Positions 37,156-58,022 of a stretch of 64,000 nt of DNA are shown piece after piece; position 1 is the stretch's first letter, and every line of letters starts with the position of its first letter. This stretch comes from Candidatus Gottesmanbacteria bacterium UBA6580 (GTDB lineage Bacteria; Patescibacteriota; Microgenomatia; UBA10105; UBA927). Position numbers and translations under genes: made by a program. The notes under the pieces were generated by a model that saw only the letters and a list, made by a program, of their open reading frames with translations, ran no database searches and was not told where the DNA came from. The stretch is from the NCBI GenBank assembly GCA_002433895.1, contig DJJA01000005.1, forward strand, positions 3,883 to 67,882. Reading direction: 5' to 3'.

Positions 37156-37278
37156 TGACTACGGCTACATACAAAGGATGCCTGAGTTAAACCGCAGGCA
37201 TCTTTTGTTATGTTTTATTTTCATAATGATGACAAGTTCTTTATCTTCATAAAATCTTAATCTCTGCAGAGGTACGAT

Positions 37279-37569
37279 TTGCTTATGCAAACAGCAGTTA
37301 AAAAAGTATACAAAGCAGAAATCCTTCAGAGTCTGCTTTCTACAAAAGTTCAAGTAGAAAAGCTTCTTTTTGATGCTGAAACAAACACCAGTTGGCAAGT
37401 GTTTCACCAACATACACAAACAGCTGTTAATCACTTGAATAATGTAATTAGATTACTAGCAGAACAACATATAACAATCTGTGTGTTAAGTAAATACAAG
37501 CAGATCGGGGTTAATTACTCTCCTGAAGATGTTGATGAAATTATGAAAATATACAGGTATCTAAACTAA
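37279..37569 (+). CDS. hypothetical protein
   Basis: 96-aa ORF. A TCTTCATA direct-repeat box lies immediately upstream. A minus-strand ORF (37165..37434) overlaps it, so one of the two is probably spurious. Confidence 0.25.
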   Translation: MLMQTAVKKVYKAEILQSLLSTKVQVEKLLFDAETNTSWQVFHQHTQTAVNHLNNVIRLLAEQHITICVLSKYKQIGVNYSPEDVDEIMKIYRYLN

Positions 37570-37573
37570 ACTT

Positions 37574-38071
37574 ATGTCACCAAAAACTATTTTTATCTGG
37601 ATGCTCGTGTTTATCGGATCAGTCGTCGGTTTGGCATTTATATTAACTGCCGGCCAGAAGCCTACTCCTGCGACGGCAAGTTATTCGACAGGAGAATCAG
37701 AGCGGCCGAAAGCCGAGACGGATAAAAACACAATAGATTTGGGAACGATTAAAGTATCTGATGTCAAAGTGCAGGATTTCGCACTTAAGAACTCAGGAAC
37801 GAAACCACTCCAAATCCTCAATGTGAACTCAAGCTGTGGCTGTACTGCAGGGCAAATTATCTACAAAGGAGAAACAAGTAAGGAATTCAGTATGCACACA
37901 CAGAGCGGGTTTGTGACAGAGATTGTGCCTGGTGATACCGCGACCGTGCGTTTGACATACCGCCCGGCTTCTATGCCCGTGTATGGACTTGTTGAACGTG
38001 CAGTATTTGTTGAGACGAATGATCCGGCAAACGCGAAACTTACTTTTAGCATTAGAACAAAGGTGGAATAA
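37574..38071 (+). CDS. DUF1573 domain protein
   Basis: Signal-anchor plus the characteristic …LQILNVNSSCGCTAG… motif of DUF1573. Confidence 0.5.
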   Translation: MSPKTIFIWMLVFIGSVVGLAFILTAGQKPTPATASYSTGESERPKAETDKNTIDLGTIKVSDVKVQDFALKNSGTKPLQILNVNSSCGCTAGQIIYKGETSKEFSMHTQSGFVTEIVPGDTATVRLTYRPASMPVYGLVERAVFVETNDPANAKLTFSIRTKVE

Positions 38072-38073
38072 TC

Positions 38074-38898
38074 ATGGACACAAATTTATTATTCGGGATT
38101 TCGTTAACCGCATCATTCTTAGCAGGAGTCTTGGCGCTGTTTGCACCGTGCTGCATTACGTTCCTCTTTCCGTCTTACCTGGGAACAATATTTAAAGAGC
38201 AAAAACGCGTTATGTACTATACGTTTGTATTTGCCGTTGGGTTGGCTTTTATCCTTGTCCCAATAGCACTTGGCATTCGTTCCATCATCTTTTTCCTTGA
38301 TGCGTATCACACACCGATATATTATCTCGGAGCACTCATTATGATTCTGATGGGGGTCATGACTTTAAAGCCGATTTTCCACCTGCCACAAATATTCCAC
38401 GTATCAGGGCTTCAGAATAAGAAAGTGAATACAGCAAGTGTCTTTGGGTTGGGACTTATGTCCGGGTTAACATCTGCATGCTGCGCGCCGGTTTTGTTTG
38501 CCGCCGTTACCCTCACATCACTCTCACCCTCATTGTTTCAGGCGGTGATAGTATCCCTTGCTTATGTGACTGGTATCGTAATGCCGCTCTTTCTAATGTC
38601 GATGTTTTATGACAAAGCGACTGCCAAAGTTACTGGACACAATAGACACAAGATATATACAGTCCTGAAAAATCTCGGAGCAGGAATATTCTTCCTCACC
38701 GGTATTCTCATTGCCGTCTTTAACTATCTAGGAAAGATCCAGATGAACCAGATGGAAGGCTATAGCCAGAAGATCCGTATGATTGTATTTGAAATTGCAA
38801 AATACTTCAAAAACCCGGTCGTCGATATCCTGGTTTTTGGCACAATTATCTATATTTTTTATCGACTACTGAGGTACAAAGGTCATGAAAACGAATAA
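38074..38898 (+). CDS. CcdA/DsbD-like transmembrane thiol-disulfide transporter
   Basis: Polytopic membrane protein with Cys pairs inside TM helices (…LFAPCCITF… and …TSACCAPVLFAAV…). Confidence 0.45.
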   Translation: MDTNLLFGISLTASFLAGVLALFAPCCITFLFPSYLGTIFKEQKRVMYYTFVFAVGLAFILVPIALGIRSIIFFLDAYHTPIYYLGALIMILMGVMTLKPIFHLPQIFHVSGLQNKKVNTASVFGLGLMSGLTSACCAPVLFAAVTLTSLSPSLFQAVIVSLAYVTGIVMPLFLMSMFYDKATAKVTGHNRHKIYTVLKNLGAGIFFLTGILIAVFNYLGKIQMNQMEGYSQKIRMIVFEIAKYFKNPVVDILVFGTIIYIFYRLLRYKGHENE

Positions 38899-39823
38899 AC
38901 TGTTTCCCATACTTTTAATTAGTGCAGTCGCCAACGTCATCTTGGCCGCATTCCTGCTCGCCCCGCAAATTACCAAGTTCAAAAATGCGCGGGCTGGTAT
39001 AGGAGCACAAAACAAAACGGTCGTTTCAAATGCTGCCAATCAGGATAATTTGTTTGATGAAGTCAATCCGGTTGAGGGATTTACCATTAAGGCCAGCTAT
39101 GGCAATTTGGGACCCAAAATGACCTCTTCAGGGGTTATCGACCTTGCAAAGTTTAAAGAGACATACGAAAAATCAAATTCACCGCTGACCGAAGAACAAC
39201 TAGCAATTTTAGAACAGGGGTCGGACAAAAATATAACCATCAATCGTGAGAATTCCTATTTCCTTCTTAACTTCTTTTGGGCAATGGGTCTAGCAAACAA
39301 GTCACCTATTCTCGACGAAGGGGACATGATCAAATACGGCGGCAAAGAAGGTGCTGGCAGCTTTGCCTCAACCGGAGGATGGACATTATCAAAAGGTAAC
39401 GCAATGAACTACTACTCTAAATCAGCACTTATCCCGCTTACCAAGGAGCAAGAAGCACTGGTCTATGAGGTAACATCCAACATTTTCAGACCCTGCTGCA
39501 ATAACTCGACCGCGTTTCCAGATTGTAATCACGGCATGGCGCTCCTTGCTGTTATGCAGCTTATGGCAAGTAATGGTGCTACGGAAAAAGAAATGTACGA
39601 GGCAGGTAAATACTTTAATGCCTACTGGTTCCCCGGCAACTATTATGATTTGGCGATGTACTTTAAGAATAAAGATGGGAAGTCTTTCAAGGAAATGGAT
39701 GCAAAAACAGTTCTTAGCCGTGAGTATTCGTCGGCATCAGGTGCACAAAGCATCAAGAAATGGCTTGTGGAGAAAGGATTAGTCCAACAGCCGCCTAAAA
39801 CTGGTGGCGGATGCGGAGTTTAA
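38885..39823 (+). CDS. exported hypothetical protein
   Basis: 312 aa with a signal-anchor helix and a Cys cluster (…FRPCCNNSTAFPDCNHGMA…). Confidence 0.3.
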   Translation: MKTNKLFPILLISAVANVILAAFLLAPQITKFKNARAGIGAQNKTVVSNAANQDNLFDEVNPVEGFTIKASYGNLGPKMTSSGVIDLAKFKETYEKSNSPLTEEQLAILEQGSDKNITINRENSYFLLNFFWAMGLANKSPILDEGDMIKYGGKEGAGSFASTGGWTLSKGNAMNYYSKSALIPLTKEQEALVYEVTSNIFRPCCNNSTAFPDCNHGMALLAVMQLMASNGATEKEMYEAGKYFNAYWFPGNYYDLAMYFKNKDGKSFKEMDAKTVLSREYSSASGAQSIKKWLVEKGLVQQPPKTGGGCGV

Positions 39824-40055
39824 AATAATGTGGCAGACGGTTGCGTACTACAAAGCTCTTTCAAACCCTAAAAGGCTAGCAATACTCAAACTGGTCGCGG
39901 TTCAAGAGAAAACAGTTGGAGATATTGTTAAGAGGCTACATCTACGACAAGCAAACGTATCTCAACATCTAATGCTTCTCAAAGAAGCAGGTGTTATTGT
40001 GATGAGGCGAAGTGGAAAGAATGTCTATTATCATTTGAAAAATGGAACGAAATAA
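39804..40055 (+). CDS. ArsR/SmtB-family metalloregulator
   Basis: 83 aa with a winged HTH (…LSNPKRLAILKLVAVQEKTVGDIVKRLHLRQANVSQHLMLLKEAGVI…). Confidence 0.7.
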   Translation: MADAEFKIMWQTVAYYKALSNPKRLAILKLVAVQEKTVGDIVKRLHLRQANVSQHLMLLKEAGVIVMRRSGKNVYYHLKNGTK

Positions 40056-40572
40056 GTGCTACCATGAATATAACGAACTCATGATGAAGCATTATCATAA
40101 AAGCATAATTCTACTTGCTACCCCAGATCAGGTTTTTGACTATGCTGATGACCATACCCGATTTTCTTCCCACATGAGCAGTTCTTCCTGGATGATGATG
40201 GGAAGTAAGATGCATATCTCGACAGACAGCAAACTTGGGAAAGAAGTCGGCTCACATATCCTTCTCGAAGGATCAATTCTTGGAATACCAATGTTTGTGG
40301 ACGAGGTCGTCACAGAACACAAAAAGCCAAGTGTTAAAACATGGAAAACAGTGAAGGTAAGAAACCTTTTGGTCATTGGCGATTATGTGATGAAAATAGA
40401 GATATTCCCTCAGGCTAAGAATTCTCTCTTTCGTGTCTCCATAGATTACGTGATGCCAGATAAAAATAGGTGGCTTGGATTACTTCTCGGAGATTGGTAT
40501 GCCAAGTGGTGTGTTCAACAAATGCTTGATGGGGCAAAAAAATATTTTCAGATGAAAAATCTAAGGAGGTGA
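40042..40572 (+). CDS. SRPBCC (START/Aha1-like) superfamily protein
   Basis: 176 aa. The ArsR plus SRPBCC gene pairing is a frequent arrangement. The assignment is by fold-family impression only. Confidence 0.35.
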   Translation: MERNKCYHEYNELMMKHYHKSIILLATPDQVFDYADDHTRFSSHMSSSSWMMMGSKMHISTDSKLGKEVGSHILLEGSILGIPMFVDEVVTEHKKPSVKTWKTVKVRNLLVIGDYVMKIEIFPQAKNSLFRVSIDYVMPDKNRWLGLLLGDWYAKWCVQQMLDGAKKYFQMKNLRR

Positions 40573-40578
40573 ATCATC

Positions 40579-40845
40579 ATGAAGCATAGTGTTTCAGCAA
40601 CTGCCAACGCAGCCGCGGTTACAATTGGTATCTTTTATGTAGTCTGTCGCTTGCTTGTAGGGCTATTTCCAGCGCTTATGTTTGCCGCAGCACAATCGTT
40701 ATTGCACGGTATGGCATTAACACAGGTCGGAACATGGAATTTGAGTATGGGTAATTTCCTCTTGGGCTTACTCACCTCAATGGTATCAGCGTGGTTTATG
40801 GGCTATGTGTTTGCCACGGCCTATAATTCGTTCGCAAAGAAATAA
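40579..40845 (+). CDS. small membrane protein
   Basis: 88 aa with two or three hydrophobic helices. RBS AGGAGGTGA upstream. Confidence 0.35.
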   Translation: MKHSVSATANAAAVTIGIFYVVCRLLVGLFPALMFAAAQSLLHGMALTQVGTWNLSMGNFLLGLLTSMVSAWFMGYVFATAYNSFAKK

Positions 40846-40891
40846 ACGATAACTTAATGTTTTCTTCATGATTTTTTAATATAATAAGATC

Positions 40892-41566
40892 ATGAGAATA
40901 CTTGTCGTCGAGGACGAACGCCGGCTATCTACCGTTATTAAAAAGGGCTTTGTCGAGGATGGATTTGCAGTCGATCAGGCATTTGATGGTGAAGACGGGC
41001 AGTTTTTAGCTGAAAGCGAGCAATACGACCTCATTGTCCTTGATATCATGCTTCCCAAGGTTGATGGTCTCACCCTTTGTAAAAATATCCGTGCAAAAAA
41101 TATAAAAACCCCGATTTTGATGTTAACTGCTAAATCCTCTACAGACGACAAAGTGGCCGGTCTTGATAGCGGTGCGGATGACTACCTTACCAAACCATTT
41201 TCCTTTGTCGAATTCCGCTCGCGTGTCCATGCACTAATCCGAAGAAGTCATCAGGAGACATCGCCTGTACTTGCAATCGATGATCTCGAACTTAATCCTC
41301 TGAAACACTCAGTTTCTCGTAAAGGAAATCCTCTAAAATTGACCCCGAAAGAATTCGCAATTTTAGAGCTTTTACTTCGTCACAAAGGTGAAGTCGTTAC
41401 CCGTACCATGATCACAGAACACGTGTGGGACTATAATTTTGATGGCATGAGTAACGTCGTTGATGTGTTTGTTGCGTCGCTCCGTAAAAAAGTAGATGCC
41501 AAAGGTAAAAAGAAAATTATTGAAACTGTCCATGGAGTAGGCTTTAGAATAGGTAGCGCTGTATGA
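40892..41566 (+). CDS. OmpR/PhoB-family response regulator
   Basis: Receiver domain (…DLIVLDIMLPKVDGL…) and a winged-helix C-terminal domain (…LTPKEFAILELLLRHKGEVVTR…VHGVGFRI). Confidence 0.9.
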   Translation: MRILVVEDERRLSTVIKKGFVEDGFAVDQAFDGEDGQFLAESEQYDLIVLDIMLPKVDGLTLCKNIRAKNIKTPILMLTAKSSTDDKVAGLDSGADDYLTKPFSFVEFRSRVHALIRRSHQETSPVLAIDDLELNPLKHSVSRKGNPLKLTPKEFAILELLLRHKGEVVTRTMITEHVWDYNFDGMSNVVDVFVASLRKKVDAKGKKKIIETVHGVGFRIGSAV

Positions 41567-42975
41567 ATACAAAAAGTCTCCGGTTCCGCGTGAGTGTGTG
41601 GTATACCTCCATTTTTTCCTTTGCGATGGCAATACTTTTTGTATCCTTCTATTTCTTAACTCAGCAGTCGCTTCTGTCTCATACAGACGGTGCAATTACA
41701 TCACATACTGAACGTATTGTAGAAATTATCGGTCAGGAAGACGGTAATTCGATGGATGCTTCATTTGTAAACAATAGTCAAGCGTTTGCCCATCAGTTTA
41801 CAGAAATGCCGGGAATGGTACTTATCATCGGAGATCCCTTTGGCAAGATTCTGTATTCTTCACAAAGTTTAGGTGGCAACGAGGCAGTTGCTGAGGTGCT
41901 ACTTGAAAAGTCTGCAAACATTATCAAGCCAACATTCGTCAACCGTACAATTGGTGGTAGTACTGTTCGACTCGGCGTATTTCCTGCTAGAAGAAGCGAT
42001 GATGGGAAAGTGCTTGTCATTATGGGGCAGCCCATGGATGTCATTCAAAATTCCCTAAATACGCTTGCAATAACGCTTTCAGTTGTCTATGCAGGAGTTT
42101 TTCTCTTAAGTTTGCTTGGAGGGATCATTATTGCCGGAAAAGCCATGAATCCAGTTGCGGCCATGTCCCGCGAGCTGAAGAAAATTAGTGCCGAAAACCT
42201 TGATGAACGCATGCCAAATCCCAAAACAGGTGACGAACTGGAAGAACTCTCGCAAACGTTTAACGGTCTTCTAGACCACCTACATGATGCTTTCGCGCGT
42301 GAACGACAGTTTATTGGTGATATGGCACATGAGTTGAAAACCCCTCTTGCAACCCTTAGGAGCAGTATTGAGGTAACTCTGACAAAAGCCAGGACGAATG
42401 ATGATTATAAAAAAGCATTTGCCGATACTTTGATAGACGTAAACCGCTTATCTCAAACGGTTAAGAATATTTTAGATTTAGCCTGGATTGGTGCAGAAAA
42501 TGCCCACACAATGAAAGAACCTGTTAATCTTTCAACTCTTGCGAAAGACTTGCACGAGATAGCCGAAAAACTGGCGGCAGAAAAGAAAATATCTATTTCA
42601 GCATCCATAGCATCCGGCGTTACCGTTGAAGGAGTTGAAGATAAAATATTTCGGGCGCTTCTCAATATTATAGATAATGCAGTGAAATACACTCCTGCAG
42701 GTAAATCGGTATCGTTATCGTTAAAGAAAAATAAACATCATGCCTTTTTTGTTGTAAAAGACTCGGGAGTTGGCATTTCAGCAGACGAGCAACAACATAT
42801 GTTTGAGCGTTTCTACCGGGGAGCAAAAACTGCACGAACGGTCGGATCCGGCTTAGGGCTTGCCATTGCTCACGGTATAATCAAAGCACATCTGGGAGAT
42901 ATACAAGTGAGTAGTAAACCCGGACACGGTACTATCATGACCATCGTACTTCCCCTCGCAAAATTGCAATCTTAA
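41563..42975 (+). CDS. sensor histidine kinase
   Basis: Two TM helices flank a periplasmic sensor domain of about 120 aa. It has a HAMP region, an H-box (DMAHELKTPLA) and N/G boxes (…DNAVKYT…DSGVGI…GSGLGLAI…). A 4-nt overlap with the RR gene indicates coupling. Confidence 0.85.
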   Translation: MNTKSLRFRVSVWYTSIFSFAMAILFVSFYFLTQQSLLSHTDGAITSHTERIVEIIGQEDGNSMDASFVNNSQAFAHQFTEMPGMVLIIGDPFGKILYSSQSLGGNEAVAEVLLEKSANIIKPTFVNRTIGGSTVRLGVFPARRSDDGKVLVIMGQPMDVIQNSLNTLAITLSVVYAGVFLLSLLGGIIIAGKAMNPVAAMSRELKKISAENLDERMPNPKTGDELEELSQTFNGLLDHLHDAFARERQFIGDMAHELKTPLATLRSSIEVTLTKARTNDDYKKAFADTLIDVNRLSQTVKNILDLAWIGAENAHTMKEPVNLSTLAKDLHEIAEKLAAEKKISISASIASGVTVEGVEDKIFRALLNIIDNAVKYTPAGKSVSLSLKKNKHHAFFVVKDSGVGISADEQQHMFERFYRGAKTARTVGSGLGLAIAHGIIKAHLGDIQVSSKPGHGTIMTIVLPLAKLQS

Positions 42976-43029
42976 CGATTTCTTCATACCTTTTGATCTA
43001 CTGTAGAAGTACCTTGAAAAGGAGGTATA

Positions 43030-43241
43030 TGAAAAATTATCATAGACAAAATATTCCTGCTGCAACTGGGCCAAGTCAGACCATGAAATGGGTAGGAATC
43101 TTTATTATCGTGGGAGCGATTCTCCTCATTGCCATATCCGTATTCAACATTCCGGTATATACCGTTGTTACTGGCGCATTATTACTAGCGTGCCCATTGA
43201 TCCACATGGCTATGATGCGGAATGGAGGGCATAAACATTAA
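43030..43241 (+). CDS. DUF2933 family small membrane protein (paralogue 1)
   Basis: Start at MKNYHRQ…; one TM helix then the motif …LLLACPLIHMAMMRNGGHKH. It is a paralogue of the ORF at 49893..50105. Confidence 0.5.
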
Positions 43242-43446
43242 GAATTAGTTCATCTTAATTTCACGATATCTTAATGACAGAAGGATTACTATAAAAGAGT
43301 TAACAGGAACATAGAAAGGAGGCGAAAAAACATGATGGGATGCTGTCACTATCCGATACGCAGTCCTACAATAACAAAGCGTAAACATTAAAATAAACCA
43401 CAGAAATCACCCTTTACCCCTATAAGGGTGATTTCTATTTTATAAC

Positions 43447-43566
43447 TTACTTAGCCTCTTCGTTTTTCAAAACCAAGTCCATTCCGCATTTGGGGCATTT
43501 CCCTGGTTTATCAGAAGTCACCTCAGGATGCATTGAACATGTATAAGTCTCTGTTGTTTCTGCCAT
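43447..43566 (-). CDS. 39-aa stand-alone zinc-ribbon heavy-metal-binding mini-protein (not in the ORF track)
   Basis: Minus-strand ORF MAETTETYTCSMHPEVTSDKPGKCPKCGMDLVLKNEEAK. Its C-x-M-H-P-E-V…C-P-K-C-G-M motif is the same one found at the N-terminus of the P1B ATPase at 51434. Confidence 0.5.
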   Translation of the reverse strand: MAETTETYTCSMHPEVTSDKPGKCPKCGMDLVLKNEEAK

Positions 43567-43605
43567 TAATTATCACCTCGCTTTCTTTTATCAAACACTA
43601 ATCAG

Positions 43606-44010
43606 CTAAGGAACATTTACAGTGAAATCCTTATTTTCCGTGCTTCCATCAGGCATTTTAACAGTGGTTCTAACTCTCCATGGCCCTCGCATAGACATAT
43701 TTCCAATCGCTGAATATCTTCCATTACCCTGCGATGTTGCATTACCTTGCTGCGTTCCCATATTCATTGCAGTCATATTCAGATCAAAGGAAACAGTTGC
43801 ATTATCAACTGGTTTACCGCTTTTATCCTTTACATCGATCATGAATGTGGCTTGACCAAGTCGAAGCGGATTAGGACTAGTAGACAGTGTAATGCCACCG
43901 TTTGAGTCAGCAGAAGTACCTGGAGTAGGAATTGACATTGATTTCCAACCGAGGTAAGCCACGGCGACAACTAAAACTGCGAGTAGTGCTAATAGTGTCT
44001 TATTATTCAT
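43606..44010 (-). CDS. periplasmic Met-rich YtkA/FixH-like protein
   Basis: Signal-anchor, then a beta-rich domain with Met clusters (…LNMTAMNMGTQQGN…IGNMSMRGPW…). Confidence 0.35.
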   Translation of the reverse strand: MNNKTLLALLAVLVVAVAYLGWKSMSIPTPGTSADSNGGITLSTSPNPLRLGQATFMIDVKDKSGKPVDNATVSFDLNMTAMNMGTQQGNATSQGNGRYSAIGNMSMRGPWRVRTTVKMPDGSTENKDFTVNVP

Positions 44011-44037
44011 ATTTTACCTCCATTCGATTTTTATACA

Positions 44038-45087: not shown

Positions 45088-45137
45088 ATTATTGCCTACT
45101 ACATAGTGTAGAACATCACACAATCATTTTCAATGAA

Positions 45138-45779: not shown

Positions 45780-45781
45780 AG

Positions 45782-46321: not shown

Positions 46322-46328
46322 CATATCG

Positions 46329-47090: not shown

Positions 47091-47145
47091 ATTACTACAC
47101 AGTGTAGTAGGTAAACAGATTATCTGTCAACTATGTCTAACCACA

Positions 47146-48144: not shown

Positions 48145-48517
48145 TCTGTTTTTCTATGAGTTTTATAAAATAATCTTTCTTTTCTTTTGGCAGCTCATCT
48201 ATGGACTCTGCGAAAGAGGCTATGGCGGTGTCGCCGAAAGATTGAAAAAAATTGGTGAAAAAAGAACCAGCTACTTTCTTACTAAATTCCTTCCGGGAAA
48301 TTCTCGGAGAGTAATACACAACAGAATTTTTCTCGGATCGTTTTAACAAGCCCTTTTCATAAAGTCGCGTAAGAATAGTCGCCACGGTTGTATAAGCCAG
48401 CTCTTTCTCTTTTCTCATTTCTTCCAGGACTTCCCGCACGGAACAAGTCTCAGAGTTCCATACGATATTCATGATTTCCTGATCGAGTGGACTTAAACTC
48501 TTTTGTGTAATCTGCAT
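48131..48517 (-). CDS. BlaI/MecI/CopY-family transcriptional repressor
   Basis: 128 aa with a winged helix (…LDQEIMNIVWNSETCSVREVLEEM…YTTVATILTRLYEKGLL…). Confidence 0.75.
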   Translation of the reverse strand: MQITQKSLSPLDQEIMNIVWNSETCSVREVLEEMRKEKELAYTTVATILTRLYEKGLLKRSEKNSVVYYSPRISRKEFSKKVAGSFFTNFFQSFGDTAIASFAESIDELPKEKKDYFIKLIEKQNENT

Positions 48518-48534
48518 ACTACTGATTGTAGTAT
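48516..48534. promoter_or_regulatory. palindromic operator ATACTAC-N5-GTAGTAT overlapping the start codon of the blaI/copY-like gene
   Basis: Perfect 7-bp inverted repeat containing the TAC…TGTA cores typical of BlaI/CopY boxes. Confidence 0.45.
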
Positions 48535-48615
48535 CTCACTGACAGACATTCAATATGTGAGACTTTAAGAAATCTTCATGCTTTCTTAATCATTCAAAGT
48601 TTAGACTATGCATAT

Positions 48616-49296
48616 ATGTACGACTATGGTAACTGGTTTCTTGTTTTATTGAACATCGTTCTATTTGGTTACTTTCTGAGAAGTTCGTTTAAACCCCGAA
48701 CCAAAACAGACTGGGAGACATTTAATTCATTCGGCGCTTTTATCGTAGCTCTATTTGCAGAAATGTACGGTTTCCCGCTAACAATTTATTTACTAACGTC
48801 ACTTTTTGGTACCCGCCTTGGTATTGACTTTACCCATGATAACGGACATTTACTCAATACTTTACTTGGAATTAAAGGAGATCCGCATTTCAGTTTTCTT
48901 CATGTAGTAAGTTATGCACTCATTATCGGAGGTTTTACCCTTCTGAGTAATGCTTGGGAAGTCCTGTATAAAGCGCAAAAACGGCGCAGACTCGCACGAA
49001 CCGGAATATATACATATATCCGCCATCCACAGTACCTTGCCTTTATCATGATCATTTTCGGCTTTTTAGTACAGTGGCCAACTATAATTACGCTCATTAT
49101 GGCGCCAATTCTCATCTGGCGGTATCTACATCTTGCCAAGCTTGAAGAGAGCGAGATACACAAACAATTCGGGTCATCCTACGCCTCATATCTTAAAAAT
49201 ACTCCTGCATTTTTACCATCTTTTACCACTGTACTAGAAAAATTAAAGTCTCGTAGCGTCAAGCTTGAGATTACGAAAGGGAATACCCATGAATAA
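48616..49296 (+). CDS. isoprenylcysteine carboxyl methyltransferase (ICMT/PEMT) family membrane protein
   Basis: …RLARTGIYTYIRHPQYLAFIMIIFGFL…E… motif of the ICMT family, with multiple TM helices. Confidence 0.55.
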   Translation: MYDYGNWFLVLLNIVLFGYFLRSSFKPRTKTDWETFNSFGAFIVALFAEMYGFPLTIYLLTSLFGTRLGIDFTHDNGHLLNTLLGIKGDPHFSFLHVVSYALIIGGFTLLSNAWEVLYKAQKRRRLARTGIYTYIRHPQYLAFIMIIFGFLVQWPTIITLIMAPILIWRYLHLAKLEESEIHKQFGSSYASYLKNTPAFLPSFTTVLEKLKSRSVKLEITKGNTHE

Positions 49297-49813
49297 TCAA
49301 GTTTCTTCATCTGACCAAGCAGTCAAACTTAGAGAGCCTATACGCGAAAGTTTGATATTATTTATTATTAAAATTACATCATTACTGATCGTAACAGACA
49401 CAATATATGCGGTGCTAAATTTTGTTCTATTACAAGCTTTCTTTCTAAATCATGAATTGCCGCTCAACCTGCATGCATATGCCCCATATATTCTTACAAT
49501 ACTTCACTTGGTAAAAACGATTTTACAAGTATGGGGAATTTCTTCAATCGTATTCCAATGGGTCGGGAATTCGTATCAAATAACTAATCGGCACTTAATT
49601 CACAGTATGGGCATAATGAATTGTACTGAGAAAATATATGATTTGAATATCATCCGTTCTATTTCCATAGAGCAGTCTTGGATCGGTAAGATATTCAAAT
49701 ACGGTACGGTAAACATCGAAATTAGCGCCTCGGGTGGTTATACGGACCAAGTAACTCTTTTTGGTGTACCAAATCCTCAGCAGTATGAAAATATGCTACG
49801 AAAGCATTTTTAA
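49289..49813 (+). CDS. membrane-anchored bacterial PH domain protein (YdbT/DUF304-like)
   Basis: Start at MNNQVSS…; TM helices then …ITNRHLIHSMGIMNCTEKIYDLNIIRSISIEQSWIGKIFKYGTVNIE…. Confidence 0.45.
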   Translation: MNNQVSSSDQAVKLREPIRESLILFIIKITSLLIVTDTIYAVLNFVLLQAFFLNHELPLNLHAYAPYILTILHLVKTILQVWGISSIVFQWVGNSYQITNRHLIHSMGIMNCTEKIYDLNIIRSISIEQSWIGKIFKYGTVNIEISASGGYTDQVTLFGVPNPQQYENMLRKHF

Positions 49814-49892
49814 TGTAAAGATATGAATCTTAACGATTTCTTCATACTTCGCTTTCTATACTGAGATATTGGTATTAAAAGGAGGTATCGGT

Positions 49893-50105
49893 ATGGAAGA
49901 TCATCACAATCACAGTGTTACAAAAGCAGAGCCGGTAAGCAGTCCCCTAAAATGGGTAGGTGTTTGCTTAGCTATCGGGGCGGTGCTCCTAATAGCTATA
50001 ACCGTGTTTAAAGTCCCGGTTAATACTGTTGCTACAACTGCTATTTTTCTCGCATGTCCGTTGTTACACATCTTTATGATGAAAAACGGCAATCATAAAC
50101 ATTAA
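49893..50105 (+). CDS. DUF2933 family small membrane protein (paralogue 2)
   Basis: MEDHHNHS…; one TM helix, then …IFLACPLLHIFMMKNGNHKH. RBS AAAGGAGGT upstream. Confidence 0.5.
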   Translation: MEDHHNHSVTKAEPVSSPLKWVGVCLAIGAVLLIAITVFKVPVNTVATTAIFLACPLLHIFMMKNGNHKH

Positions 50106-50123
50106 AAATGAAAGGAATTTTAT

Positions 50124-50504
50124 ATGAATAATAATATTGGTATTGCAGCGGTTATTATCGCCGTTATTGTGGGTATAATTGGTTATACAAAATTTAATTC
50201 ATCTGCAGGAGGAAGTCAGGCTGTACAGCAGGTGGGAGATGTTGCCGTTATCAAACTTTCCAGTCTACCGAATGGAAACTACACAAATCAAAAGTTTGAA
50301 GTTAAACAAGGAACCAAAGTACGAATTGAAGGCGATCCTGCTACACTCGTTGGCTCGATGAGTAAAGTTATCGTTGATGGCTATGAAGTAAGTAAAGACA
50401 TTGCCGAAGGTGACAACGTCTTAGAGTTTGTCGCCGACAAGTCAGGTAAGTTTCGGATTCACTGTGCAAATGGCATGGGTAACGCATTTCTGACGGTCAA
50501 ATAA
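50124..50504 (+). CDS. cupredoxin-like small exported protein
   Basis: Signal-anchor and a beta-rich domain ending …KFRIHCANGMGNAFLTVK. The same C-x-x-G-M pattern recurs twice in the C-terminus of the 55970 protein. Confidence 0.35.
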   Translation: MNNNIGIAAVIIAVIVGIIGYTKFNSSAGGSQAVQQVGDVAVIKLSSLPNGNYTNQKFEVKQGTKVRIEGDPATLVGSMSKVIVDGYEVSKDIAEGDNVLEFVADKSGKFRIHCANGMGNAFLTVK

Positions 50505-50540
50505 TTCTCGCCAAGATGTTGTACTATTAAAGGTAGAACC

Positions 50541-51197
50541 ATGGATACAAAGGGAGGTACAACAATGAATAACACAAAAAATCTCTACGCTATCGGTGGA
50601 GTGGTTCTTGGTGCAGTACTGGCCTGGTTTTTGTTTTCCACTGCTGTCCGGAGTAATAACGTGGGTATGATGCAGATGATGGGGCTTCGTGCCCCTACTT
50701 CCTCCAACTCGGATACGCTGGATGCTCATTTTATCGAACAAATGATTCCTCACCATGAAGATGCCATTACTATGGCACGGCTTGCAGAAACTAAAGCCAA
50801 AACTTCTGAAGTAAAGCAATTAGCCAAAAATATAATAACTTCTCAAGGATCTGAGATCGACCAAATGAAATCATGGTACAAAGGCTGGTTTAGACGGGAT
50901 CTTCCAACAGGCAAAAACGTCATGACACAGCACAGCATGATGGGCGGAAGCCAAAGCATGCATATGGGGATGATGGGTAACGAAACAGACTCTGCCCGAC
51001 TCGAAAATGCAGACGATTTTGATACAGCATTTGTGGAGGATATGATTCCTCATCATCAAATGGCAGTTATGATGGCAAGCATGCTTAAAGATGGTTCTTC
51101 AAGGCCGGAAATGCGAAAACTTGCTGACGATATTATTGCAGCTCAAACCAGTGAAATTAATGAGATGCGGATGTGGCTTACCAAGTGGAGTAAATAA
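50541..51197 (+). CDS. DUF305 (CopM-like) periplasmic metal-binding protein
   Basis: Internal duplication with two …[FI][IV]E[QD]MIPHH[EQ]…M…MA… motifs, a Met/His-rich linker and a signal-anchor helix. Confidence 0.7.
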   Translation: MDTKGGTTMNNTKNLYAIGGVVLGAVLAWFLFSTAVRSNNVGMMQMMGLRAPTSSNSDTLDAHFIEQMIPHHEDAITMARLAETKAKTSEVKQLAKNIITSQGSEIDQMKSWYKGWFRRDLPTGKNVMTQHSMMGGSQSMHMGMMGNETDSARLENADDFDTAFVEDMIPHHQMAVMMASMLKDGSSRPEMRKLADDIIAAQTSEINEMRMWLTKWSK

Positions 51198-51200
51198 TTA

Positions 51201-51437
51201 ATGATGCACTCAATCACTACACAAACAATAAAAACTACAGCAACTTTAACATGTCCTCTTTGTCACAAAGACCATGTAGAAGAAATGCCTATAGATGCGT
51301 GCCAACATTTTTATAAATGTGAGTCATGTAAATCGATAATTAAGCCAAAAGAAGGAGATTGCTGTGTTTTTTGTTCATATTCAGATAGTTTATGTCCACC
51401 GAAGCAAGCTGAGTATCTTGCAGCTAACAACTTATGA
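51201..51437 (+). CDS. small Cys-rich putative metal-binding protein
   Basis: 78 aa with 10 Cys (CPLC…CQHFYKCESC…GDCCVFCSY…C). Its stop overlaps the ATPase start by ATGA. Confidence 0.35.
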   Translation: MMHSITTQTIKTTATLTCPLCHKDHVEEMPIDACQHFYKCESCKSIIKPKEGDCCVFCSYSDSLCPPKQAEYLAANNL

Positions 51438-53668
51438 CTACATATACCTGCTCAATGCATCCGGAAGTTATTAAAGATGCTCCTGGTACCTGTCCAAAAT
51501 GCGGAATGACATTAGTTCCCGTAGAAAAAACTCCAGACCACTCCGGGATGGATCACTCATCCCACACTGAGAGTGCTCATGATCATCATTCCATGAAGAC
51601 GGTAACAGGCATGACCTTTTGGGAAAAACTCAAAATGAGTATGACTATGTCGATGGGAATGGATCATACGGGATTGACAGGTCGCGAGATGGCTAAACTC
51701 ATGGAAGAAGATATCCGGAACAAATTTTTTGTCTCACTCCTTCTGACTCTACCCATTATTGCGTATTCCCCGATGGGTACAAATATGCTCGGCCTTTCTT
51801 TGCCGACACCTATTCCCGCTTCGTGGATTATGTTTCTTTTAACGACACCAGTGTACTTTTACTCTGGGTGGATCTTTCTGTATTCAACCTATAAAGCACT
51901 GCAAGCAAAAACTCTCAATATGGCTGTGCTTATCGCCGTCGGCATTACCGCCGCATACGCTTTTAGCATTGTTCTAACGCTTCTTGGGAGCGAAGAGTCA
52001 TTTTATGAAGCGGCAGCCATGCTTACCACATTCGTCTTGTTTGGACACTGGATGGAAATGAAGTCACGCCGGGGAACGACCGATGCCCTGCAGGCCTTAT
52101 TTAATTTGGTGCCCCCACAAGCACGGGTATTACGGGATGGCAAAGAAATGATGATCCCTACCTCTGAAGTAAAGCTCGGCGATATTCTCATACTCAAGCC
52201 AGGTGACAAGGTGCCGGTCGATGGCGAGATTATTGAAGGTGAAACCGCAATCGATGAGTCTTTAGTGACCGGCGAGTCCTTGCCTGTTGCAAAATCTATC
52301 GGTGATAGTGTCATCGGAGGATCAATCAATACATCAGGTTCAGTTCAGTTTAAGGCAACCAAAATAGGATCTGATACCGCACTTGCGCAAATCGTTAAGA
52401 TGGTTGAGACTGCACAAAACTCCAAAGCCCCTGGGCAAAAAATTGCCGATCGGTTCGCTAAATACCTTGTCATAGTGGCCGTCGGTGGTGGGCTTCTTAC
52501 GTTTCTTGTTTGGTATTTTGCCTTAGGCGCAACATTTATGGTTGCACTCACGTTTGCAATTTCTACGGTTGTTATTGCGTGTCCGGATGCGTTAGGACTT
52601 GCGACCCCTACCGCTGTTGCGGTCGGTACCGGATTGGGTGCCAAGCACAATATTCTTATCAAGGACGCCCCCACGCTTGAGCAGGTATCGAAGATCCAAG
52701 CTGTGGTACTCGATAAAACGGGAACACTTACAGAGGGGAAACCTATTATTACGGATGTTATAGCAGCAACAGGATTTACTGAGGACGAGATCATCGCACT
52801 CGACGCAGCAGCAGAGGCCAAGTCATCACATCCGTTAAGTTTGGCGGTCTTGGAAGAAGCCAAAAAACGAAAAGTAGAGATACCGACGACTGTTGAAAAA
52901 TTCCAAAACTTAGCGGGTCACGGAGTGGAAGCAGTTGTTGATGGCAAAAAAGTGTTAGTCGGCACCAACAAGCTCATGCAGGACAGAAATATATCTATTG
53001 ATCCCATCAAAGCGGATATAGATCGACTGCTGTCTGAAGGTAAAACGATAATGGTGCTGGCTGTTGACGGCAAAGTTGCCGGCGTTGCTGCAGCCTCTGA
53101 TCCTGTGAAAGCCAACGCAAAATCGGCGATTGCCCGTATGAAAGACATGGGTCTGACGGTCGCTATGATAACTGGTGACAATCAAAAAACTGCGGAAACA
53201 ATCGGCAAGCAACTCGGCATAGACCGGGTATTTGCAGAAGTACTGCCGGAGGATAAATCGTCATACGTCAAAAAACTACAGGCAGAAGGTAAATTTACAG
53301 CTATGGTCGGTGACGGTGTCAATGATGCGCCTGCCCTTGCCCAAGCTGACATCGGGATCGCTATCGGGGCAGGAACGGATGTGGCGATAGAAACAGCCAA
53401 GGTGGTGCTTATGAAATCGGATCCGGCAGATGTCCTGCGGGCAATTAAACTCTCCAAAGCGACAGTCCGGAAGATGAAGGAAAATCTCGTCTGGGCGAGT
53501 ATTTATAACCTACTAGCAATTCCGGTTGCTGCAGGCGTTTTATACCCTAGCTATGGCATTACGCTTCGCCCTGAGTTCTCTGCTCTTCTTATGTCAATTT
53601 CTTCGATAATCGTGGCCACCAATGCCGTACTCCTCAAGCGGGCAGAGAAAAGTCTAGTACAAATGTAG
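51434..53668 (+). CDS. P1B-type heavy-metal-translocating ATPase with an N-terminal zinc-ribbon metal-binding domain, a His/Met-rich linker and an atypical CPD transmembrane motif
   Basis: N-terminus YTCSMHPEV…CPKCGM, then …HSGMDHSSHTESAHDHH…MSMTMSMGMDH…. It has a TGES actuator motif, an [13 protein letters not shown]6 motif (Cys-Pro-Asp), DKTGTLT, and GDGVNDAPAL. Length 744 aa. Confidence 0.85.
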   Translation: MTTYTCSMHPEVIKDAPGTCPKCGMTLVPVEKTPDHSGMDHSSHTESAHDHHSMKTVTGMTFWEKLKMSMTMSMGMDHTGLTGREMAKLMEEDIRNKFFVSLLLTLPIIAYSPMGTNMLGLSLPTPIPASWIMFLLTTPVYFYSGWIFLYSTYKALQAKTLNMAVLIAVGITAAYAFSIVLTLLGSEESFYEAAAMLTTFVLFGHWMEMKSRRGTTDALQALFNLVPPQARVLRDGKEMMIPTSEVKLGDILILKPGDKVPVDGEIIEGETAIDESLVTGESLPVAKSIGDSVIGGSINTSGSVQFKATKIGSDTALAQIVKMVETAQNSKAPGQKIADRFAKYLVIVAVGGGLLTFLVWYFALGATFMVALTFAISTVVIACPDALGLATPTAVAVGTGLGAKHNILIKDAPTLEQVSKIQAVVLDKTGTLTEGKPIITDVIAATGFTEDEIIALDAAAEAKSSHPLSLAVLEEAKKRKVEIPTTVEKFQNLAGHGVEAVVDGKKVLVGTNKLMQDRNISIDPIKADIDRLLSEGKTIMVLAVDGKVAGVAAASDPVKANAKSAIARMKDMGLTVAMITGDNQKTAETIGKQLGIDRVFAEVLPEDKSSYVKKLQAEGKFTAMVGDGVNDAPALAQADIGIAIGAGTDVAIETAKVVLMKSDPADVLRAIKLSKATVRKMKENLVWASIYNLLAIPVAAGVLYPSYGITLRPEFSALLMSISSIIVATNAVLLKRAEKSLVQM

Positions 53669-53692
53669 TATTGCCTAAAGAGTAACTTTGAC

Positions 53693-53712
53693 ATATCATT
53701 AGATAATGATAT
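53693..53712. promoter_or_regulatory. ArsR-type operator: 9-2-9 inverted repeat ATATCATTA-GA-TAATGATAT overlapping the arsR start codon
   Basis: Perfect palindrome read from the sequence. A TTGACA hexamer lies directly upstream at 53687-53692. Confidence 0.5.
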
Positions 53713-54031
53713 GAAAAAGACTAACTACGCTATAAACGCAAAATTTTTCAGAGGATTCTCAGACCCTACCAGACTTTCCGTTCTCCTGACACTCCTTGAC
53801 AATGAGAAGACTGTGGGAGAAATAGTCGAGGACATCCAGCAATCTCAATCAAATGTATCCAATCATCTTAAATGTCTTTCAGATTGTGGATTGGTGAAAA
53901 ATAGAAGAAACGGAAAAAATATCTACTACTCACTTAGAGATCCCAAAACTAAACGGTTACTTACGTTATCCGAACAGGTAATTTCGAAAGTTTACGCTGA
54001 TATTGATGCTTGCTTGAGATACAAGGAATAA
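53711..54031 (+). CDS. ArsR/SmtB-family metalloregulator (CadC/CzrA-like)
   Basis: 106 aa with a winged HTH (…LSDPTRLSVLLTLLDNEKTVGEIVEDIQQSQSNVSNHLKCLSDCGLV…). It precedes a P1B-4-type ATPase. Confidence 0.75.
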   Translation: MKKTNYAINAKFFRGFSDPTRLSVLLTLLDNEKTVGEIVEDIQQSQSNVSNHLKCLSDCGLVKNRRNGKNIYYSLRDPKTKRLLTLSEQVISKVYADIDACLRYKE

Positions 54032-54038
54032 TAATTAT

Positions 54039-55922
54039 ATGAAAAGAATATTGTCTTATCTAAAAAATCCAAAAGTAGCAACCTCATCAGTCAGCTGGTT
54101 GGTATTTCTCATTACGTTCTTTTTAGGATTATTCGGTGTTGGACAAGCCGTCATAATTCCCCTCTATGTATCAGGCATTCTTATCGGTGGATTTTATTTC
54201 GGACGGGAAGCAATTGAAAAGTTATTTGAGAAAAAAATTGGTATCGAAATCCTGATGTCTGTTGGAATTATTGGGGCGGCAGCTCTGGGAGAGTGGAAGG
54301 AGGCATTGCTTCTGGTTGGGCTTTACTCTATTTCTGAAGCAATCGAAAGTTTCATTTCCGACAAGACCAGAAGTGCCATTCGTGCTTTGATGGATTTAGT
54401 ACCGAAAAAAGCGTTGGTCAAAGAAAATGGCAAAACAGAATATATTTTGGCAGAGAAGCTCGAAGTAGACCAGATTTTTATTGTCAAAGCGGGCGAATCT
54501 ATTGCCACCGACGGAATTATCTACACGGGGAGTGCTTCTATCAATCAAGCTGCGATTACCGGAGAGTCTATTCCTGTGTTTAGAAAAGAAGGAGAAACCG
54601 TGTTTGCTGGGACGATAAACGAGGACGGATACATAGAAGTTAAAGCCACGAAGAAGTTTTCGGAAAATACCATCTCAAAAATTATCAAACTGGTTGAAGA
54701 TGCACAGGAGAGTAAAGGCAAAAGACAACAAATGGTTGAAAAATTTTCCTATACTTTTTCACCGATAGTGCTGGGTGTCTCTATTCTCATGCCGCCAGCA
54801 CTGATCCTTTTAGGGTTTCCTCTTTCTGACGCTTTCGTAAGAGCTGTAACATTTGTGGTAGCTGCCTCTCCCTGTGCTTTCGCGGTTTCCATCCCGGTTG
54901 CGTTTGCAGCAGCAATAGGCACTTCGGCAAAAAATGGAGTGTTGGTAAAAGGAGGGATTTATTTAGAAGAGCTCGCCGATACAAAAGTAGTAGCTTTTGA
55001 CAAGACAGGCACGCTCACCACCGGTAAGCCCGTGGTAACAAATATTCTTCCTTTTGGAAACCTTGGCAAAAAACAACTCCTAGAGACCGCAGGTGGTTTA
55101 GCTGTCAACTCATCACATCCGCTTAGTAAAGCAGTTCTATCGGAGTTATATCAGAATAATGTCAATCCGTCATCAGTTGCCAGCCATCACACAATGGCAG
55201 GTGAAGGAGTTAAAGGGGTGATCGATGGAGAAACAGTCTATCTTGGCAGTCCACATCTTTTTGAAAAGCTGGGACAGCGTATTTCGGATATCCGCGAATT
55301 TAAAACATTCTCAGCAGAAGGTAAAACGGTCATTTTTGTCGGCACGGAAAAGAAACTGTTAGGCCTAATCGCAATCGCCGATGCTCCGAGAACCGAAGCC
55401 AAAGCAGCTTTATTATCACTAAAGCGATTGGGTGTAGAAAATGTCATGCTCACGGGTGACCATACGTTGGTTGGAGAAAGCATCGGAAAAGAACTTGGAG
55501 TAGATAAAGTCATTGCCGAGCTGAAACCCGACCAGAAAGTAGAGCGAATTAAGGAACTGAAAAATAAATATCATCATGTGGCTATGATTGGTGATGGTAT
55601 TAATGATGCGCCGGCACTGGCCGAGTCGTCGGTTGGACTGGCAATGGGAACGGCCGGAACAGATGCGGCTCTTGAAGCTGCAAATGTTGCGATCATGGGC
55701 GATGATCTTACTAAAATTCCTTATGCTATCCAACTATCCCGTTATGCTAAAAAGATTGTTTTTCAGAATCTTTTTTTCTCGACAGTTTTACAGGTTATAG
55801 TAATGGGACTTGCAATCTTTATGGTTTTGCCAGTTAGTCTCATATTGTTCGTGGATGAGTTTGGAGAAGTTTTAGTAGTCTTGAATGGACTTCGTCTGCT
55901 ATCTGGGAAAATAAATAGCTGA
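54039..55922 (+). CDS. P1B-4-like (SPC-motif) heavy-metal ATPase without an N-terminal metal-binding domain
   Basis: ASPCAFAVSIP TM6 motif, TGES, DKTGTLT and [10 protein letters not shown], 627 aa. The TM8 region reads DEFGEVLVVLNGLRLL rather than the canonical HEGST…. Confidence 0.8.
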   Translation: MKRILSYLKNPKVATSSVSWLVFLITFFLGLFGVGQAVIIPLYVSGILIGGFYFGREAIEKLFEKKIGIEILMSVGIIGAAALGEWKEALLLVGLYSISEAIESFISDKTRSAIRALMDLVPKKALVKENGKTEYILAEKLEVDQIFIVKAGESIATDGIIYTGSASINQAAITGESIPVFRKEGETVFAGTINEDGYIEVKATKKFSENTISKIIKLVEDAQESKGKRQQMVEKFSYTFSPIVLGVSILMPPALILLGFPLSDAFVRAVTFVVAASPCAFAVSIPVAFAAAIGTSAKNGVLVKGGIYLEELADTKVVAFDKTGTLTTGKPVVTNILPFGNLGKKQLLETAGGLAVNSSHPLSKAVLSELYQNNVNPSSVASHHTMAGEGVKGVIDGETVYLGSPHLFEKLGQRISDIREFKTFSAEGKTVIFVGTEKKLLGLIAIADAPRTEAKAALLSLKRLGVENVMLTGDHTLVGESIGKELGVDKVIAELKPDQKVERIKELKNKYHHVAMIGDGINDAPALAESSVGLAMGTAGTDAALEAANVAIMGDDLTKIPYAIQLSRYAKKIVFQNLFFSTVLQVIVMGLAIFMVLPVSLILFVDEFGEVLVVLNGLRLLSGKINS

Positions 55923-55984
55923 AAGCTAAAATTTATTGGCAAATCTTCATAAAATCTTCATAGCTTGCCTTGTATGCTCTAACA

Positions 55985-57802: not shown

Positions 57803-57825
57803 CGAAAGGAATTATATGAACACAC

Positions 57826-58022
57826 AAACATTTACATTAACCGGCCTAACTTGCCCAGCCTGCAAAAAGATAACTGAAAAACGAATCGGTTCGCTTCCCG
57901 GAGTGACGCACGTCGAAGTGACAGTTTCGAATGGTTCTGCCCATGTGATGTCCGAGAGTCTTATTACAAACGTACAAATCAACGAGGTATTGAAGGATAC
58001 CCCGTATTTTATAGAAGGATAA
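57826..58022 (+). CDS. copZ: copper chaperone CopZ (HMA domain)
   Basis: 65 aa with [14 protein letters not shown]…GV, the MxCxxC-type HMA fold. RBS GAAAGGAAT upstream. The ORF track extends it upstream to 57720. Confidence 0.7.

Follow-up and report, generated by a model that had tools for sequence, protein, structure and literature searches.

A conserved tandem box as the probable operator of a mobile metal-resistance regulon in Patescibacteria

Which regulator coordinates the metal-resistance genes of a mobile element in a Patescibacteria genome, and by which operator? To our knowledge, gene regulation is almost unknown in these bacteria of the candidate phyla radiation (CPR), which cannot be cultivated alone. 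The question is raised by a 64,000-nt stretch of contig DJJA01000005.1 of Candidatus Gottesmanbacteria bacterium UBA6580 (hereafter the window). Its host is a Patescibacteria (CPR) bacterium, and it contains an island at about 26.4-62.8 kb (~26400-62875) with a guanine-cytosine (GC) content of about 0.40, compared to 0.49 in the flank. An initial annotation had reported six copies of a bipartite box in front of operons of this island and had assigned them to the only OmpR-family regulator encoded there. This interpretation was right in kind and is partly supported overall. The boxes are very probably the operators of the island-encoded OmpR/PhoB-family regulator (40892-41566), which is paired with the kinase at 41563-42975 and would drive a metal regulon.

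All six boxes were recovered letter for letter on the plus strand (S1 to S6; Table 1), and the gene labels of the initial annotation agree with Pfam. At each of them, the two half-sites are arranged head-to-tail and lie exactly 11 bp apart. A search of the 64-kb window with the pattern TCTTMAYNNNNTCTTMAT, allowing at most one mismatch, gave seven matches, compared to 0.25 expected from 100 dinucleotide shuffles, none of which reached seven. The additional match arises at S2 from a third, in-phase half-site that overlaps the box. Since the GC content of the island is below that of the flank, the control was repeated with an island-only first-order Markov model, which produced a mean of 0.15 and a maximum of two matches in 200 simulations. 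Neither the minus strand nor the 26-kb host part of the window contains a match to the pattern. All boxes fall within the 4.5 % of the island that is non-coding, and only S3 touches a gene, namely the last 6 nt of the kinase. With these counts, the motif is not equally frequent in coding or AT-rich DNA, an objection that had been raised together with the original claim.

The boxes are embedded in a common promoter layout. A TAnnnT hexamer follows 10 nt 3' of the box at five of the six sites and 9 nt 3' at S2. A -35 hexamer is absent at all six, and a scan with the sigma-70 consensus calls no promoter at any box. Based on this fixed layout, the box spans about -41 to -23. Start codons were corrected to ATG 37285, 43029, 49893 and 55985, and independent gene calls on identical metagenome contigs pick the same starts where those contigs cover them. 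With these starts, 22, 21, 40, 24, 46 and 22 nt separate the box end and the start codon (S1 to S6). For the first gene, ATG 37285 is likely instead of the originally given TTG 37279. Because the ATG lies 6-8 nt past the -10 hexamer at S1, S2, S4 and S6, leaderless mRNAs are predicted there. At S3 and S5, a leader with an AGGAGG-type ribosome-binding site precedes the gene.

The conservation of the box was assessed in loci related to the regulator. At least 545 regulator relatives were identified in a scan with one genome per species, and 80 loci were retrieved. The CPR set comprises 52 loci (782 kb) with the more similar regulators (57-82 % identity), and its named members are Woese-, Collier-, Gottesman-, Ames-, Roizman- and Daviesbacteria, Levyibacteriota, WWE3 and Saccharibacteria. 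The other set comprises 28 loci (514 kb; 52-58 % identity), mostly from Nitrospinota. In the CPR set, 37 exact matches to the pattern and 116 with at most one mismatch were found, compared to 0 and 0-5 (about 2) in shuffles. At least one box is present in 46 of the 52 loci, and 105 of the 116 sites are on the regulator's strand. No enrichment was detected in the other set, with 2 exact matches and 3 with at most one mismatch, compared to 0 and 0-3 in shuffles. The two exact matches, in Nitrospinota/Deltaproteobacteria loci (L067, L083), have no -10 hexamer at the right distance and were read as chance.

The geometry is conserved as well. The half-sites of the 116 related sites are likewise 11 bp apart, and TAnnnT occurs exactly 10 nt downstream in 66 of them and 8-11 nt downstream in 100, at a background of 0.021 per position. 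For the 95 CPR sites with an assigned start, the distance from hexamer to start is 6 nt in 37, 7 nt in 13 and 8 nt in 6 cases. The resulting CPR consensus is wTCTTCATAAwwTCTTMATm, N10, TAnnAT, ~N6, ATG, with the box part taken from 66 sites. The search pattern did not prescribe its A/T-rich linker, the A at position 5 of the -10 hexamer or the ATG signal. When the region upstream of the regulator gene is taken by gene position alone, many CPR loci show a direct repeat, 8-10 nt, TATAAT, 6-8 nt and ATG. The assignment of starts at box promoters is well constrained, for example because the HMA metal-binding motif begins about 10 residues past the proposed ATG in all orthologues.

Since the sites were picked by the pattern, the box columns of the consensus are circular. 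For this reason, the information content of the position weight matrix (PWM) inside the box was discarded as evidence and replaced by a homologue-first test. Homologues of all island genes were sought in the CPR loci by tblastn alone, and a box with at most two mismatches was then sought no more than 130 nt upstream. A box precedes the genes for the HMA-DsbD-cupredoxin protein (13/16), DUF2933b (6/9), DUF1573 (10/19), ICMT (6/13), DUF2933a (3/7), the CsoR-like protein (2/2) and the regulator itself (21/52), the last in agreement with the earlier statement that the regulator's own promoter carries a box. Counts were 1/32 for the kinase and zero for BlaI (0/9), BlaR (0/6), DUF3105 (0/6), YtkA (0/5), CopA (0/8) and the 78-aa Cys-rich protein (0/9); random segments gave 1.5 %. 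Thus, the families heading box-driven units in the window are those preceded by a box elsewhere, and the internal and minus-strand-cluster genes are not. Classifying the proteins downstream of boxes by similarity agrees with this and adds several clear CsoR-family proteins, and the box-preceded genes are confined to a small set of metal-related families. The existence of the motif, its enrichment, geometry and conservation and its association with particular genes are direct observations. The metal regulon proposed earlier is supported by boxes at the starts of the regulator operon and five other operons and by their conservation across the CPR loci.

The promoter of the regulator gene shows additional variation. 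Three in-phase half-sites are present there in the window and in its closest relatives (L012, L014, L060, L063, L011), the last one overlapping TATAAT. As a general feature, the third half-site was dropped, since it is not conserved beyond these relatives. A systematic 8-9-nt spacer at regulator promoters was also rejected in favor of a mixture (9 nt in ten cases, 10 nt in eight), with targets nearly always at 10 nt, and a shorter spacer at regulator promoters compared to targets is suggestive only. The third half-site and the 9-nt spacer could tune or limit autoregulation. In five loci (L017, L024, L025, L035, L052), the regulator gene is located directly 3' of a homologue of the 312-aa protein (C-terminus ...GGGCGV) and is preceded by a TATAAT-like hexamer only, without a box. 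As box-less regulator promoters occur in several loci, autoregulation is not universal in this clade.

The window holds one OmpR-family regulator and one histidine kinase and no second of either, which agrees with the original statement of a sole such regulator on the island. The regulator matches the Pfam families Response_reg (7.8e-28) and Trans_reg_C (1.1e-26), and the PhoB model scores 198 bits, lower than the heavy-metal model discussed below. With an acidic pocket (E7, D8, E9) and with D51, T79 and K101, its set of phospho-acceptor residues is complete, and the H-box of the kinase is present. The nearest solved structure, Thermotoga DrrD (1kgs), shows the generic OmpR-family fold and is uninformative on specificity. 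Actinobacterial plasmid relatives of the regulator (Nocardia, Mycolicibacterium, Rhodococcus) were considered and rejected as comparisons: none has the box, the two annotated loci are not copper loci, and the Rhodococcus record is without annotation.

Taken together, these results are best explained by a two-component system acting on all boxes. The kinase would sense excess metal, most likely copper and possibly also silver, and phosphorylate the regulator at D51. A head-to-tail regulator dimer would then bind the two 7-8-bp half-sites 11 bp apart. That a direct repeat with this period is an OmpR/PhoB-type operator architecture had been suggested before and fits, as box, -10 spacing and target families are kept. 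The box would take the place of the -35 element, and a dimer bound 10 bp 5' of the -10 hexamer would recruit the housekeeping RNA polymerase in a PhoB-like class II activation. Six or seven transcription units would be switched on in this way, including the regulator/kinase operon by positive autoregulation. The predicted targets are the CopA/CopZ/HMA-DsbD-cupredoxin operon, the DUF2933/cupredoxin/DUF305/P-type ATPase operon, the DUF1573-containing operon, the ICMT operon and the second DUF2933 gene. Leaderless mRNAs would arise from four promoters, where the predicted transcription start is the A of the ATG or lies within about 2 nt of it. By analogy, copper (or silver) is the most likely signal because of the cargo (a CPC-type CopA, CopZ, cupredoxins, HMA domains, DUF305 and a His/Met-rich ATPase) and because of a precedent in Corynebacterium.

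This precedent also bears on the motif itself, which the initial annotation did not recognize as a known consensus. This did not hold: the half-site and the 9-2-9 tandem match the operator of Corynebacterium glutamicum CopR (PMC3140484), and the layout is that of the pho box (PMC1906773). The CopR operator TGAAGATTTnnTGAAGATTT has the same half-site and the same tandem with an 11-bp period as the boxes in the window. S6 with its flank (AAATCTTCAtaAAATCTTCA) agrees with 18 of the 18 specified bases of the reverse complement AAATCTTCAnnAAATCTTCA of this operator. Phosphorylated CopR binds TGAAGATTTgaTGAAGATTT, and changing three bp of the motif abolishes binding, as demonstrated by electrophoretic mobility shift assays and mutagenesis (PMC3140484, PMC3353115). 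CopR activates its own operon and a divergent copper operon, the response is copper-specific, and the deletion mutant is sensitive to copper only (PMC3140484, PMC3353115). The native site, taken from the oligonucleotides of the paper, is TCTTCATcaaaTCTTCAA (PMC3140484). A 45-mer of it recovered an identical region on Corynebacterium marinum pCmarinum1, which encodes a 240-aa CopR, CopS, an HMA protein, a copper ATPase and DUF305, with CueP and a multicopper oxidase in divergent orientation. An OmpR-family regulator, an adjacent kinase and autoregulation, represented here by the box at the regulator's own promoter, are common to C. glutamicum CopRS and the window. A copper P-type ATPase, an HMA protein and DUF305 belong to the C. 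glutamicum regulon as well as to that of the window.

Several other explanations of the boxes were considered. The regulator could bind them as a repressor that occludes the -35 region until a signal releases it. The box covers the usual site of sigma region 4, and the third, degenerate half-site overlapping the -10 hexamer at the regulator promoter makes autorepression possible. However, no promoter offers a -35-like hexamer to unaided polymerase, the fixed 10-bp distance and the orientation match PhoB activation sites, and the characterized CopR with the same operator is an activator. Moreover, simple occlusion needs no strict spacing, such as the one observed at the majority of CPR sites. 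Repression is therefore considered unlikely. Less probable still is that the boxes are bound by another regulator of the island (ArsR-type, weak CsoR-like or BlaI-like) instead of the response regulator. The island does encode at least four other metal-type regulators, and CsoR-like genes are often the first downstream of a box. ArsR, CsoR and BlaI/CopY proteins, however, characteristically bind inverted repeats, unlike the strict head-to-tail repeat of the box with its 11-bp period. The BlaI-like gene has a 7-5-7 palindrome of its own, the same 9-2-9 sequence is a proven site of an OmpR-family protein (CopR), and the box is most consistently tied to the response-regulator gene itself.

It is, by a small step, even more doubtful that a housekeeping or alternative sigma factor reads the box directly as a -35 or UP-like element, which would make it a shared promoter type. 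The always fixed distance and orientation to a -10-like hexamer would be expected of such an element, and a housekeeping -35/-10 had been named as a possible refutation of the original claim. A housekeeping -35 can be discounted, as the box is missing from host promoters in the window and is itself without TTGACA: the 26-kb host part has no boxes although leaderless TATAAT-type promoters occur there, and at least one host promoter (upstream of 18026) has a TTGACA-like -35. Furthermore, the box is a 19-bp tandem repeat and not a hexamer, the scanned island proteins have no sigma-factor family match, the window has no second regulator or kinase, and the box-preceded genes are limited to few metal-related families. 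Chance matches in AT-rich DNA or functionless leftovers of duplication can practically be dismissed. S3 and S5 are identical in all 19 nt and lie before paralogous genes, and the island is AT-rich, but the flanks of S3 and S5 have diverged where the box has not, and the observed number of matches far exceeds the expected one. In addition, box, spacing and target families are kept where the regulators are only 57-82 % identical.

Activation by the island-encoded response regulator thus remains the preferred explanation, although several points weigh against it. The best NCBIfam model of the regulator, TIGR01387 (heavy-metal CopR/CusR/SilR), scores 256.2 bits and is under its cut-off of 279.2, and that of the kinase, TIGR01386 (CopS), scores 241.4 bits and is under its cut-off of 292.55. 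Every comparison locus was chosen via the regulator gene, so that the co-occurrence of box and regulator is judged only among regulator-positive loci, and about 20 loci of the CPR set have unverified titles, e.g., 'uncultured Gammaproteobacteria'. The recognition helix of the CPR type is SNVVDVFVASLRKK. Box-bearing CPR regulators have the common helix/wing signature SN[VI]VDV[FL]xxxLRKK ... T[VI]HGVGY, and box-less Nitrospinota homologues have TNVIDVYVNHLRKK ... TLRGVGY. This difference would fit a change in specificity, but the contrast is confounded with phylogeny. Not all copper genes are covered, as the minus-strand multicopper-oxidase cluster has no CopR-type box. The window regulator is only 41 % identical to CopR of pCmarinum1 and not orthologous, and its recognition helix is SNVVDVFVASLRKKV, compared to ERIVDVHIGNLRRKL in Corynebacterium-type CopR. 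Orthology thus does not account for the common operator. In Corynebacterium, moreover, about 43 nt separate the site from a downstream -10-like hexamer, GATACT, which itself lies 7 nt before the copR ATG, and the site has the opposite orientation relative to copR. The positional mechanism there consequently differs from that in the window. Hence, the operator sequence is common to Corynebacterium CopR and the window, while orthology and positional mechanism are not. Finally, it is inferred that the regulator binds the boxes, that it activates instead of repressing, that copper is the signal and where transcription starts.

Table 1. Boxes, associated promoters, the two-component system, transcription units and mobility genes in the window.
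Feature	Position	Strand	Details
Box S1	37244..37262	+	TCTTCATAaaaTCTTAATC; PWM score 29.5, maximum 30
S1 promoter, TACGAT	37273..37278	+	10-nt spacer; 6 nt to ATG 37285; leaderless layout
Unit 1	37285..40845	+	weak CsoR-like 94 aa, DUF1573, 274-aa membrane protein, 312-aa protein, ArsR, SRPBCC, DUF5676
Box S2	40852..40870	+	ACTTAATGtttTCTTCATG; regulator's own promoter
Third, degenerate in-phase half-site	40874..40881	+	TTTTAATA; overlaps -10 of S2 promoter
S2 promoter, TATAAT	40880..40885	+	9-nt spacer; 6 nt to ATG 40892
OmpR/PhoB-family response regulator	40892..41566	+	E7, D8, E9, D51, T79, K101; winged helix
Sensor histidine kinase	41563..42975	+	2 transmembrane segments, HAMP, HisKA with H256, HATPase
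Box S3	42970..42988	+	TCTTAACGattTCTTCATA
S3 promoter, TACTGT	42999..43004	+	10-nt spacer; leader with GGAGG; ATG 43029
Unit 3	43029..43241	+	70-aa membrane protein, paralogue of DUF2933-like gene at 49893
Candidate weak box S7	43258..43276	+	ATTTCACGataTCTTAATG; PWM score 15.6; 10-nt spacer; TACTAT 43287-43292
Box S4	48573..48591	+	TCTTCATGcttTCTTAATC
S4 promoter, TAGACT	48602..48607	+	10-nt spacer; 8 nt to ATG 48616
Unit 4	48616..49813	+	ICMT-family methyltransferase, bPH_2 membrane protein
Box S5	49828..49846	+	TCTTAACGattTCTTCATA
S5 promoter, TATACT	49857..49862	+	10-nt spacer; leader with AGGAGG; ATG 49893
Unit 5	49893..53668	+	DUF2933-like, cupredoxin-like 126 aa, DUF305, 78-aa Cys-rich protein, P1B-ATPase 744 aa
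Box S6	55944..55962	+	TCTTCATAaaaTCTTCATA; with flank AAATCTTCAtaAAATCTTCA
S6 promoter, TATGCT	55973..55978	+	10-nt spacer; 6 nt to ATG 55985; TATGCT and spacing same in orthologous promoter of L060
Unit 6	55985..61176	+	HMA-DsbD_2-cupredoxin membrane protein, CopZ-like (57816-58022), CopA-type ATPase (CPC)
ParB-N6-methyltransferase	33010-34344		
Terminase subunits, small and large	34337-36281		
Serine integrase	61271-62626		adjoins tRNA-Lys
tRNA-Lys	62803-62875	-	

Two of the boxes have further elements in their surroundings. The candidate weak box S7 is followed by a strong Shine-Dalgarno site (AAAGGAGG), a 19-codon Cys-rich mini-ORF (open reading frame) at 43332-43391 (MMGCCHYPIRSPTITKRKH) and a terminator-like hairpin at 43414-43431. 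The mini-ORF is kept in synteny in the related locus L060 (MGCCHFPCRSPTAI), where no clear box was seen. It may act as a regulatory leader or encode a small copper-binding peptide. At 48565-48572, immediately 5' of S4 in the divergent blaI/ICMT intergenic region, the half-site occurs once more in inverted form (TTAAGAAA), complementary to TTTCTTAA at 48582-48589.

The island is an integrative element with a serine integrase next to the tRNA-Lys gene. It carries terminase subunits and a metal-resistance cargo, genes for capsid or tail were not recognized, and it looks like a satellite-like integrative element. Identical copies of the regulator protein are encoded on 18 contigs, the length of one of which is 1.13 Mb. 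The ten occurrences listed are from wastewater, bioreactor sludge and other metagenome samples, and the gene order is the same on the longer contigs. Several wastewater and bioreactor metagenomes (L001-L010) contain the island in almost the same form. The nearest relatives of the regulator (77-96 % identity) are titled Patescibacteria, Gottesman-, Roizman-, Woese- and Shapirobacteria.

Not all metal-related genes of the island are associated with the box. The Zn/Cd/Co-type module (ArsR and an SPC ATPase, 53711-55922) is without one. The minus-strand cluster (48517-43447) begins with a BlaI/CopY-like repressor, followed by a BlaR-like M56 protease, DsbA, a membrane protein, DUF3105, the multicopper oxidase, YtkA and a 39-aa HMBD peptide. 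The 7-5-7 palindrome ATACTAC-tgatt-GTAGTAT at 48516-48534 spans the start codon of the BlaI/CopY-like gene and a leaderless-type -10 hexamer. Since this cluster has no CopR-type box, it probably belongs to a separate BlaI/BlaR-type circuit. Counting also the box regulon and the box-less Zn/Cd/Co module, at least three regulatory circuits thus seem to coexist on the island. The transmembrane metal-binding motif of P1B ATPases is usually CPC, CPH or SPC. The P1B-type ATPase of unit 5 (51434-53668, 744 aa) has a CPD motif at this position, a His/Met-rich N-terminus and an HMBD-type zinc-ribbon.

The leaderless layout was also considered as a box-specific feature, but this was rejected because it is also found at host genes. 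Among ORFs of 120 aa or more, 21-26 % have TAnnnT 6-8 nt before the ATG, in the host part as well as in the island and the CPR loci, compared to about 6 % by chance. Shine-Dalgarno-like sequences were found at only 9-26 % of the same ORFs. Leaderless-type examples in the host part (1-26000) are ATG 4828, 21844 and 21758 (minus strand), and others occur in loci L011-L060. These figures point to leaderless translation as a common feature of this Patescibacteria lineage. A literature search, which was not exhaustive, found no paper on CPR leaderless mRNAs, a CPR regulon or a CPR copper two-component system.

It is an even question whether the boxes define the first transcriptional regulon of Patescibacteria. 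As such, it would be a mobile copper-defence regulon, widespread in Microgenomates-type lineages, with a rigid box-10 nt-TAnnnT-6 nt-ATG module, mostly leaderless transcripts and the same operator as actinobacterial CopR. If true, several families of unknown function, namely DUF1573, DUF2933, the ICMT-like methyltransferase and the HMA-DsbD-cupredoxin membrane protein, would be under copper control, and the operator common to CPR and actinobacteria would reflect either ancient retention across distant phyla or convergence. The set of regulator, operator and promoter, kept in dozens of lineages, could serve as a handle for reading metatranscriptomes. A copper module on an integrative, terminase-carrying element is also relevant to metal co-selection in treatment plants.

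Compared to known systems, the window combines features of several of them. In C. glutamicum, a single site serves two divergent operons and is 266-285 bp from the other mapped start, whereas the window has six or seven sites with 10 nt (9 nt at S2) between box and -10 hexamer. The sensor loop of CopS is about 30 aa in Corynebacterium, compared to about 135 aa between the two membrane segments of the window kinase, an estimate read off the sequence. The start of copR is preceded at a distance of 7 nt by GATACT on pCmarinum1 (L094, 5990-6100), in a region identical to the C. glutamicum cop intergenic region. This distance suggests a leaderless copR transcript; the 2011 paper reported that mapping of the copR transcription start had failed.

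The promoter layout matches that of the pho box of Escherichia coli PhoB, in which a 3-bp A/T linker joins two 8-bp direct repeats and a TAN3T -10 hexamer follows after 10 bp (PMC1906773). Like the box in the window, it is a 19-bp 8-3-8 direct repeat that lies 10 bp from the -10 hexamer and replaces the -35 element (PMC1906773). PhoB, like the window regulator, controls several operons, its own included. The systems differ in the half-site, which is of the CTGTCAT type for PhoB and TCTTCAT in the window, and in the signal, phosphate versus metal. The closest protein subfamily is formed by the proteobacterial heavy-metal regulators (48-50 % identity), whose cargo likewise serves metal efflux and detoxification. 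However, the copper box of CusR/CopR/SilR/AgrR is the inverted repeat ATKACA-N4-TGTMAT (PMC7380067), i.e., an inverted 6-4-6 repeat compared to the direct 8-3-8 repeat of the window. This inverted repeat is absent from the island, and the whole window has one one-mismatch match, at 482 in the host part, with 0.77 expected. For AgrR, a type II activator position and positive autoregulation have been reported (PMC7380067). Synechocystis CopR, which autoregulates copMRS, has a putative TTCAT-N4-5-TTCAT box (PMC4182526). It shares with the window the TTCAT direct repeat, a copper-responsive two-component system and autoregulation, but its spacing is N4-5 compared to N6, and the likeness is judged on the box only, which is itself putative in Synechocystis. 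Regulators that are only 41 % identical but share one operator, and closer proteobacterial relatives that use an inverted repeat, make this a case for studying regulator specificity. Measured against these systems, the window most likely contains a mechanistically ordinary OmpR/PhoB-type activator regulon with a CopR-type operator, which is mobile, widely conserved and unusually clean and whose novelty lies in its occurrence in Patescibacteria.

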